From: Escherichia coli
GTDB taxonomy: Bacteria > Pseudomonadota > Gammaproteobacteria > Enterobacterales > Enterobacteriaceae
Assembly (NCBI RefSeq): GCF_024502345.1
Contig: NZ_JALDNN010000001.1
Reading direction: 5' to 3' (one strand)
Length of the DNA stretch: 64,000 nucleotides
The notes beneath the pieces were generated by a model, which worked only from the letters and a program-made list of their open reading frames with translations, had not been told where the DNA came from and did no database searches. The stretch's first letter is position 1. The number at the start of each line of letters is the position of its first letter. Of this stretch, positions 46,045 through 56,190 are shown in pieces. The translations under genes were made by a program, and so were the position numbers.

Positions 46045-46677
46045 TTAACGAGTGCCGTAAACGACGATGGTTTTACCGTGTGCGGAGATCAGGTTCTGAT
46101 CTTCAAGCATCTTCAGAATGCGTCCCACGGTTTCACGAGAACAGCCGACAATCTGACCGATTTCCTGACGGGTAATTTTGATTTGCATACCGTCCGGGTG
46201 AGTCATAGCGTCTGGTTGTTTTGCCAGATTCAGCAGAGTCTGTGCAATGCGGCCCGTCACGTCGAGGAACGCCAGGTTGCCCACTTTCTCTGAAGTGACT
46301 TGCAGACGACGCGCCATCTGTGCAGACAGACGCATCAGAATGTCCGGGTTTACCTGAATCAATTGGCGAAATTTTTTGTACGAAATTTCAGCCACTTCAC
46401 AGGCGGTTTTCGCACGTACCCATGCGCTACGTTCCTGGCCCTCTTCAAACAGGCCCAGTTCGCCAATAAAATCACCCTGATTCAGATAGGAGAGGATCAT
46501 TTCTTTACCCTCTTCGTCTTTGATCAGCACTGCCACAGAGCCTTTAACGATGTAGTACAGCGTTTCCGCTTTTTCACCCTGGTGAATAAGCGTGCTCTTG
46601 GATGGGTACTTATGAATGTGGCAATGAGACAAGAACCATTCGAGAGTCGGGTCTGTTTGCGGTTTGCCAAGCACCAT
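46045..46677 (-). CDS. crp: cAMP receptor protein (catabolite activator protein)
   Basis: 210-aa [80 protein letters not shown]...[17 protein letters not shown]. Confidence 0.98.
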
Positions 46678-54299: not shown

Positions 54300-54890
54300 A
54301 TGAAAGTAGCAAAAGACCTGGTGGTCAGCCTGGCCTATCAGGTACGTACAGAAGACGGTGTGTTGGTTGATGAGTCTCCGGTGAGTGCGCCGCTGGACTA
54401 CCTGCATGGTCACGGTTCCCTGATCTCTGGCCTGGAAACGGCGCTGGAAGGTCATGAAGTTGGCGACAAATTTGATGTCGCTGTTGGCGCGAACGACGCT
54501 TACGGTCAGTACGACGAAAACCTGGTGCAACGTGTGCCTAAAGACGTATTTATGGGCGTTGATGAACTGCAGGTAGGTATGCGTTTCCTGGCTGAAACCG
54601 ACCAGGGTCCGGTACCGGTTGAAATCACTGCGGTTGAAGACGATCACGTCGTGGTTGATGGTAACCACATGCTGGCCGGTCAGAACCTGAAATTCAACGT
54701 TGAAGTTGTGGCGATTCGCGAAGCGACCGAAGAAGAACTGGCTCATGGCCACGTTCACGGCGCGCACGATCATCACCACGATCACGACCACGACGGTTGC
54801 TGCGGCGGTCATGGCCACGATCACGGTCATGAACACGGTGGCGAAGGCTGCTGTGGCGGTAAAGGCAACGGCGGTTGCGGTTGCCACTAA
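54300..54890 (+). CDS. slyD: FKBP-type peptidyl-prolyl isomerase / metallochaperone SlyD
   Basis: 196-aa ORF MKVAKDLVVSLAYQVRTEDGVLVDESPVSAPLDYLHGHGSLISGLE... with His/Cys/Gly-rich C-terminal tail. Confidence 0.96.
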   Translation: MKVAKDLVVSLAYQVRTEDGVLVDESPVSAPLDYLHGHGSLISGLETALEGHEVGDKFDVAVGANDAYGQYDENLVQRVPKDVFMGVDELQVGMRFLAETDQGPVPVEITAVEDDHVVVDGNHMLAGQNLKFNVEVVAIREATEEELAHGHVHGAHDHHHDHDHDGCCGGHGHDHGHEHGGEGCCGGKGNGGCGCH

Positions 54891-54904
54891 TACCGAAAAA
54901 GTGA

Positions 54905-54936
54905 CAAAAAAGCGGGGAATCCCCGCTTTTTTTACG
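54905..54936. terminator. Bidirectional rho-independent terminator between slyD and slyX
   Basis: AAAAAAGCGGGGA-at-CCCCGCTTTTTTT, U-runs on both strands. Confidence 0.8.
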
Positions 54937-54938
54937 CC

Positions 54939-55157
54939 TCAATAATGTGGCGGTGGCGTTTCTTCAGCCTGCGACGCGATGTTCGACGGCTGGCTGGCTT
55001 TTAACTTCTCGGTCAGCAGACGCAGATGATCGCGCAGTTTCGCCATCTCCATTTCATGAGCGGTCACCGTGACGTTCAGTTCTTCAATGGTGATTTCCTG
55101 AAAAGCCAGTCGGCTCTCCAGCTCTGCCAGGCGTGCTTCCAATGATAAATCCTGCAT
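54939..55157 (-). CDS. slyX: Protein SlyX
   Basis: 72-aa coiled-coil [31 protein letters not shown]... Confidence 0.9.
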
Positions 55158-55377
55158 GATTCACCTCTTTTGTCGAATGGTCGCCGCGGATTCTACTTAA
55201 CTTTGCTGCCCGAGACAGCACTCATTTCGCGGTCATCGAAACTAATTTAAACAAAAAGAGTCTGAAAATAGATGATAATAGGGCGTGTCTGTATGTAGAT
55301 TTGTTCGACAACGCTTTATAGTACCCTTCTGATAATAGTTAACCTTGGGGTGAGATGCCCCGATCCTGGAGATATGG

Positions 55378-56190
55378 ATGAAATCACTGTTTAAAGTAAC
55401 GCTGCTGGCGACCACAATGGCCGTTGCCCTGCATGCACCAATCACTTTTGCTGCTGAAGCTGCAAAACCTGCTACAACTGCTGACAGCAAAGCAGCGTTC
55501 AAAAATGACGATCAGAAGTCAGCTTATGCACTGGGTGCCTCGCTGGGTCGTTACATGGAAAACTCTCTAAAAGAACAAGAAAAACTGGGCATCAAACTGG
55601 ATAAAGATCAGCTGATCGCTGGTGTTCAGGATGCATTTGCTGATAAGAGCAAACTCTCCGACCAAGAGATCGAACAGACTCTGCAAGCATTCGAAGCTCG
55701 CGTGAAGTCTTCTGCTCAGGCGAAGATGGAAAAAGACGCGGCTGATAACGAAGCAAAAGGTAAAGAGTACCGCGAGAAATTTGCCAAAGAGAAAGGTGTG
55801 AAAACCTCTTCAACTGGTCTGGTTTATCAGGTAGTAGAAGCCGGTAAAGGCGAAGCACCGAAAGACAGCGATACTGTTGTAGTGAACTACAAAGGTACGC
55901 TGATCGACGGTAAAGAGTTCGACAACTCTTACACCCGTGGTGAACCGCTCTCTTTCCGTCTGGACGGTGTTATCCCGGGTTGGACAGAAGGTCTGAAGAA
56001 CATCAAGAAAGGCGGTAAAATCAAACTGGTTATTCCACCAGAACTGGCTTACGGCAAAGCGGGTGTTCCGGGGATCCCACCGAATTCTACCCTGGTGTTT
56101 GACGTAGAGCTGCTGGATGTGAAACCAGCGCCGAAGGCTGATGCAAAGCCGGAAGCTGATGCGAAAGCCGCAGATTCTGCTAAAAAATAA
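55378..56190 (+). CDS. fkpA: Periplasmic FKBP-type peptidyl-prolyl isomerase / chaperone FkpA
   Basis: 270-aa ORF with signal peptide and FKBP domain (GVIPGWTEGLKNIKKGGKIKLVIPPELAYG). Confidence 0.96.
   Translation: MKSLFKVTLLATTMAVALHAPITFAAEAAKPATTADSKAAFKNDDQKSAYALGASLGRYMENSLKEQEKLGIKLDKDQLIAGVQDAFADKSKLSDQEIEQTLQAFEARVKSSAQAKMEKDAADNEAKGKEYREKFAKEKGVKTSSTGLVYQVVEAGKGEAPKDSDTVVVNYKGTLIDGKEFDNSYTRGEPLSFRLDGVIPGWTEGLKNIKKGGKIKLVIPPELAYGKAGVPGIPPNSTLVFDVELLDVKPAPKADAKPEADAKAADSAKK

Follow-up and report, generated by a model that had tools for sequence, protein, structure and literature searches.

Does the intergenic region between slyX and fkpA in Escherichia coli hold a promoter through which the envelope-stress factor sigma-E drives fkpA, or have two short boxes resembling one merely come together there by chance? 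The stretch of DNA analysed (the window, 64 kb at its full length) belongs to the E. coli chromosome and covers slyD, slyX, fkpA and yheO, its gene order being kefB, yheV, slyD (+, ending at 54890), slyX (−, 55157..54939), fkpA (+, 55378..56190), yheO, tusD, tusC and tusB. The boxes lie on the fkpA strand (+) of the 220-bp divergent slyX–fkpA intergenic region. Positions 54900–55500 recur at 95% identity or more in 5425 of 5426 complete E. coli genomes, with slyX and fkpA as the annotation there, and a comparison of 55140–55400 with K-12 MG1655 returned a single mismatch (55345) and no indels, the promoter bases being identical throughout. On the other side of slyX, between convergent slyD and slyX (54870–54933), a hairpin rich in G+C, with A-runs and T-runs on its flanks (54906–54932), looks like a bidirectional terminator; at 28.5 bits against a gathering score of 45, the 3' end of slyD together with this hairpin also gives a sub-threshold Rfam match to the Salmonella sRNA STnc40.

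The candidate promoter, its leader and the gene downstream comprise the following features:

55238..55244, + strand: −35 element GAAACTA, matching GGAACTT at 5 of 7 positions, with the AAC core intact.
55245..55260, + strand: spacer ATTTAAACAAAAAGAG, A-rich, 16 nt, its last base (G55260) doubling as the extended −10 G.
55260..55265, + strand: −10 element (G)TCTGA, of the (G)TCTGA / (G)TCAAA type.
55269..55272, + strand: probable transcription start zone, placed by a tagRNA-seq prediction and the 5–6 nt discriminator rule.
55271..55377, + strand: predicted 5' UTR of the sigma-E transcript, about 107 nt, from the start zone to the ATG at 55378.
55368–55371, + strand: ribosome-binding site GGAG in the fkpA leader, 3' of a hairpin at 55346–55364.
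55378..56190, + strand: fkpA coding sequence, the gene that the promoter would drive, a 270-aa open reading frame annotated as fkpA in E. coli genomes.

Direct reading of the + strand bears out the two boxes named in the initial annotation, cGAAACTa (55237–55244) and TCTGA (55261–55265). The spacer, put there at about 16 nt, measures exactly 16 nt between GAAACTA (55238–55244) and TCTGA (55245–55260), and the quoted distance of about 115 bp to fkpA comes to 113 nt from the end of the −10 element to the ATG. The sigma-E consensus combines a −35 GGAACTT with a −10 TCAAA across a spacer of 15–19 nt, 16 being strongly preferred (Rhodius 2006, PMC1312014); by sequence, the fkpA site has the −35, the −10 and the spacer of a sigma-E promoter. 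The 30 nt 5' of the −35 (55208–55237) are 40% A+T and 60% G+C and only about 10–50% conserved, so the A/T-rich UP element that characterizes strong sigma-E promoters (Rhodius 2012) is absent from 55208–55237. That absence argues for modest strength and nothing further, an UP element being no defining feature of sigma-E promoters generally.

We compared the site with five other sigma-E promoters read from MG1655, which also served to build a crude position weight matrix (PWM):

rpoE P2: −35 GGAACTT, spacer 16, −10 TCTAA; 5' end not anchored here.
rpoH P3: −35 TGAACTT, spacer 16, −10 TCTGA; 5' end not anchored here.
degP: −35 GGAACTT, spacer 16, −10 TCTGA; 5' end not anchored here.
micA: −35 TGAACTC, spacer 16, −10 TCTGA; 6 nt, then the annotated 5' G.
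rybB: −35 AGAACTT, spacer 16, −10 TCTTA; 6 nt, then the annotated 5' G.
fkpA: −35 GAAACTA, spacer 16, −10 TCTGA; aaata-G (55271) or aaatag-A (55272).

A sixth promoter, that of lpxD, was omitted from the matrix because the lpxD start quoted in PMC7075262 shows no clear canonical motif. Like the promoters of rpoE (P2), rpoH (P3), degP, micA and rybB, the fkpA site joins an AAC-containing −35 to a (G)TCTGA-type −10 across 16 nt, and it shares with rpoE P2, degP and rpoH P3 a run of AAAA within the spacer. It departs from them in a −35 that reads GAAACTA where theirs read (G/T/A)GAACTT, in its want of an A/T-rich UP element, and in a much lower matrix score, 11.3 bits as against 19–22 bits for the training promoters. 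Because the −35 is sub-consensus, the score lies this far below those of the training set, and the UP position is filled by G+C-rich, unconserved DNA, the promoter is probably of modest intrinsic strength.

Taken by sequence alone, the motif is no more than chance would supply. With the consensus pattern fixed a priori (GGAACTT-N16-TCTGA, up to 2 mismatches), the window yields 2 matches against 4.08 expected, no excess; likewise, when the window is shuffled by mononucleotide, an average of 2.5 sites reach or exceed the PWM score of the fkpA site, again no excess. The exact string GAAACT-N17-TCTGA is expected only 0.02 times per window, a figure for a pattern chosen post hoc from the site itself. 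Among 127,946 window positions the fkpA site ranks second on the matrix. The top match (GGAACGC-N16-TCTGA, 46266–46293, +; 12.9 bits) runs antisense within a 210-aa minus-strand open reading frame (46045..46677), which we take from its position on the MG1655 map to be crp; this match is most likely due to chance, and its higher score shows how easily such matches arise. Since the sequence match stands at chance level, the significance of the fkpA site has to be drawn from its position, its conservation and published experiments.

To gauge conservation, we compared the 240 nt upstream of the start codon at 80 fkpA loci, one genome per species, spanning Enterobacteriaceae, Erwiniaceae and Chimaeribacter. 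The pattern GAAACT(A/T)-N16-TCnnA lies 136–146 nt before the fkpA ATG in 78 of the 79 loci other than our own, with a spacer of exactly 16 nt in 76 of the 79 (15 in L073 and L042, 17 in L068). The property by which Rhodius 2006 delimited the core regulon, a promoter conserved upstream of orthologs, is thus found at 78 of 79 loci. In the sole exception, an uncultured Pluralibacter metagenome-assembled genome (L042), the site about 140 nt upstream of fkpA has GAAATT as its −35 and a spacer of 15 nt, which may reflect either a degenerate promoter or a fault in the assembly; a second Pluralibacter bin (L048) carries the canonical site. The S. enterica arizonae locus in the set (L046) has, like E. 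coli, GAAACTA-N16-TCTGA, at −139.

This conservation is selective. Across 50 non-redundant sequences (pairwise identity at most 90%), identity to E. coli reaches 0.99 at GAAACT and 0.88 at TCTGA, as against 0.45 for the 80 nt upstream, and it falls to only about 0.1 in the 8 nt directly 5' of the −35. When the comparison is narrowed to 16 distant sequences from Erwiniaceae and Chimaeribacter, non-redundant and no more than 47% identical to E. coli between the two genes, GAAACT comes out ahead of every other hexamer in the region (0.99 against a background of 0.41), and the full two-box pattern, scored as the −35 hexamer plus G-T-C and the terminal A at fixed spacing, ranks first of 187 offsets (0.975; next best 0.788). 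Within the −10 element, conservation reaches at least 90% at G, at T, at C and at the final A, and the two middle positions vary, the loci reading TCTGA, TCGGA, TCTCA, TCCTA, TCTTA, TCACA or TCGTA. About 80 genomes, some of them from genera whose surrounding sequence is unalignable, thus keep the AAC core, the spacer length and, in the −10, G-T-C plus the last A, and this combination of fixed G-T-C and terminal A with a free middle fits selection for sigma-E recognition and not general sequence inertia. The A at position 2 of the −35 is itself retained in 78 of 80 sequences, Mixta alone reading GGAACTT, which suggests that the sub-optimal match is maintained. Among Enterobacteriaceae the spacer ATTTAAACAAAAAGAG shows unusually high conservation, and its CAAAAA part is partly kept in the distant genera (0.5–0.7).

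Published experiments place sigma-E-responsive 5' ends at the same spot. FkpA belongs to the core sigma-E regulon that related genomes share (Rhodius 2006, PMC1312014), and fkpA was induced 3.1-fold and flagged as found earlier by Dartigalongue, Kabir and Rhodius (Bury-Mone 2009, PMC2731931). In a tagRNA-seq time course after sigma-E induction, the 5' ends at PfkpA show the same response as other sigma-E starts; the fkpA start was predicted at MG1655 3477528, inside a run of 12 tagged nucleotides and embedded in what is described as a strongly transcribed region, while a previously reported fkpA 5' end was classed as a processing site (PMC7075262). With the fkpA ATG at 3477419 and no indels between the two sequences, MG1655 3477528 corresponds to window position 55269. 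This base is a T, only 3 nt past TCTGA and 2–3 nt upstream of the canonical start position; the short distance and the processing-site classification both count against the sigma-E reading. Sigma-E promoters follow a rule of a 5–6 nt discriminator and a purine start (Rhodius 2006, PMC1312014), with which G55271 and A55272 agree, 55269 itself lying within the 12-nt tagged run. The prediction for degP (180840/42, PMC7075262) is likewise 2–5 nt upstream of canonical spacing, and because the same upstream shift occurs there, we read the fkpA 5' end as belonging to the same promoter, located with some imprecision. By the discriminator rule, +1 would be G55271 or A55272, giving a start zone of 55269–55272. 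In Salmonella (S. Typhimurium), sigma-E ChIP-seq yielded a peak assigned to fkpA/slyX, and fkpA is named there as one of the genes whose sigma-E promoters had been established before (PMC4577112); the literature in favour further includes PMC6737893, and the fkpA promoter serves as a sigma-E reporter (bioRxiv 10.1101/2021.08.26.457804). Since gene and intergenic region coincide and 5' ends responsive to sigma-E fall at window position 55269, the site should be the published fkpA sigma-E promoter, an identification that we infer to hold base for base.

We therefore regard the site as the promoter through which sigma-E (RpoE, sigma-24) drives fkpA, with a probability of roughly 0.93. Its boxes, spacing, orientation, selective conservation and equivalence to canonical promoters of the same genome are observed in the DNA itself; the dependence of fkpA on sigma-E, and occupancy by sigma-E in Salmonella, are taken from the literature. 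The central claim of the initial annotation, a sigma-E-type promoter for fkpA, is accordingly upheld by architecture, by conservation across about 80 genomes, by published regulon and 5'-end data and by the Salmonella ChIP-seq, and its description of fkpA as an envelope-stress regulon member agrees with the gene's place in the core sigma-E regulon (PMC1312014).

How such a promoter would work follows the general scheme for this factor. Envelope stress leads to proteolysis of RseA and frees sigma-E, and the holoenzyme E-sigmaE binds the −35 element through region 4 and the −10 element through region 2, melting the latter. At fkpA, accumulation of unfolded outer-membrane proteins would cause RseA to be degraded and sigma-E to be released; E-sigmaE would then recognize GAAACTA (55238–55244) through region 4 and GTCTGA (55260–55265) through region 2 across the 16-nt spacer. 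Transcription would begin a few bases downstream, at 55269–55272, and the mRNA, its 5' leader about 107 nt long, would encode FkpA, a periplasmic prolyl isomerase and chaperone.

Two readings would deny sigma-E a direct role at these boxes. According to one, the motif is a chance match, and the sigma-E dependence of fkpA comes from another site or is indirect. The chance-level consensus count and shuffles, and a score far below those of canonical promoters, are what this reading predicts; yet the 240 nt upstream of fkpA contain no other pair of a GGAACTT-like box and TCnnA, the site is the best-conserved two-box pattern of the intergenic region (first of 187), and sigma-E-responsive 5' ends map directly after it (PMC7075262). 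Because of this footprint and these 5' ends, we consider pure chance extremely improbable. According to the other, the boxes are genuine binding sites of a different factor, be it sigma-70, an ECF sigma factor other than sigma-E or a protein regulating divergent slyX, and the position between divergent genes would suit such a factor. On the minus strand, TCTACA-16-TATCAT (55299..55272; 9 of 12 matches) does resemble a sigma-70 site; it overlaps the region, and transcription from it would run toward slyX across the sigma-E start. Conservation of its two hexamers is poor, however, and it is probably a chance match, and a generic consensus scan found no sigma-70-type site on the + strand at the motif. 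The positions that are conserved are, moreover, those critical to sigma-E (AAC, GTC, the terminal A and the 16-nt spacing), with the middle of the −10 left free, and the Salmonella ChIP peak supports occupancy of the intergenic region by sigma-E itself (PMC4577112). Since the conserved positions are the sigma-E-specific ones, binding by another factor is very unlikely.

A third reading accepts the sigma-E promoter and questions its share of the output: the promoter would be real but minor and active only under stress, most fkpA mRNA arising from a proximal housekeeping promoter with the −10 TATAGT at 55317–55322. We hold this to be a serious possibility, if somewhat less than an even one. TATAGT belongs to a second strongly conserved box, TTATAGTA (+ strand, within 55294–55322), about 55 nt before the fkpA ATG; it is kept even in Erwinia, Pantoea and Chimaeribacter and is the second most conserved hexamer in the distant genomes (0.97). 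A weak −35, TGTAGA, lies 17 nt upstream of it, so that TGTAGA-17-TATAGT resembles a sigma-70 promoter close to the gene, within what would be the sigma-E leader, and the strongly transcribed surroundings of the fkpA start (PMC7075262) are consistent with such a source. The consensus scan, by contrast, did not call the TATAGT site, which has 8 of 12 matches against a threshold of 9, and no start belonging to a proximal promoter was observed. A putative promoter at this box, which may supply basal fkpA expression, would in any case complement the sigma-E promoter and not exclude it.

Downstream of this box, the leader contains a small conserved hairpin (55346–55364, +; cTGGGGt-GAGAT-gCCCCGa), which sits just 5' of the ribosome-binding site and leaves it uncovered. 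An alignment fold gives it 7 pairs, 2 of them with compensatory changes, and its stem reads GGGG/CCCC in Enterobacteriaceae and GAGG/CTTC in Erwiniaceae. The one base at which this region differs from K-12 MG1655, 55345 (T here, C there), falls at the base of the hairpin and turns a C-G pair into U-G. We also considered a large structured fkpA leader and rejected it, the fold of the whole leader having no unusual stability (z = 0.41) and only the small hairpin being supported. Rfam searches at E ≤ 1 returned no family in the fkpA promoter or leader, hairpin included. The hairpin could be an undescribed post-transcriptional element, acting for example in mRNA stability or as a target of an sRNA or RNase.

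Returning to the sigma-E promoter itself, it is an already known, textbook feature, and this is the only point that the initial annotation missed. The fkpA start site is said to have been mapped by Danese and Silhavy in 1997 and by Dartigalongue et al. in 2001, and Rhodius and colleagues in 2006 reportedly included this exact site among mapped sigma-E promoters; the promoter is listed in RegulonDB/EcoCyc. A literature search with the promoter sequence as a string returned unrelated papers only. That fkpA belongs to the sigma-E envelope-stress regulon has been standard knowledge since the late 1990s, and the promoter already serves as a reporter, so the discovery value of the site is small. Even so, a promoter for an alternative sigma factor with a weak consensus match was correctly located by a reader working without tools, and the locus illustrates that motif statistics alone cannot validate such a site, while phylogenetic footprinting cleanly separates it from chance matches, among them the better-scoring one antisense to the presumed crp. 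More speculatively, and on balance doubtfully, three elements may be combined in the control region of fkpA: a sigma-E promoter kept deliberately below consensus, a proximal TATAGT promoter under separate conservation, and the conserved hairpin of the leader; if so, the region would carry more regulation than the textbook 'sigma-E promoter' implies.
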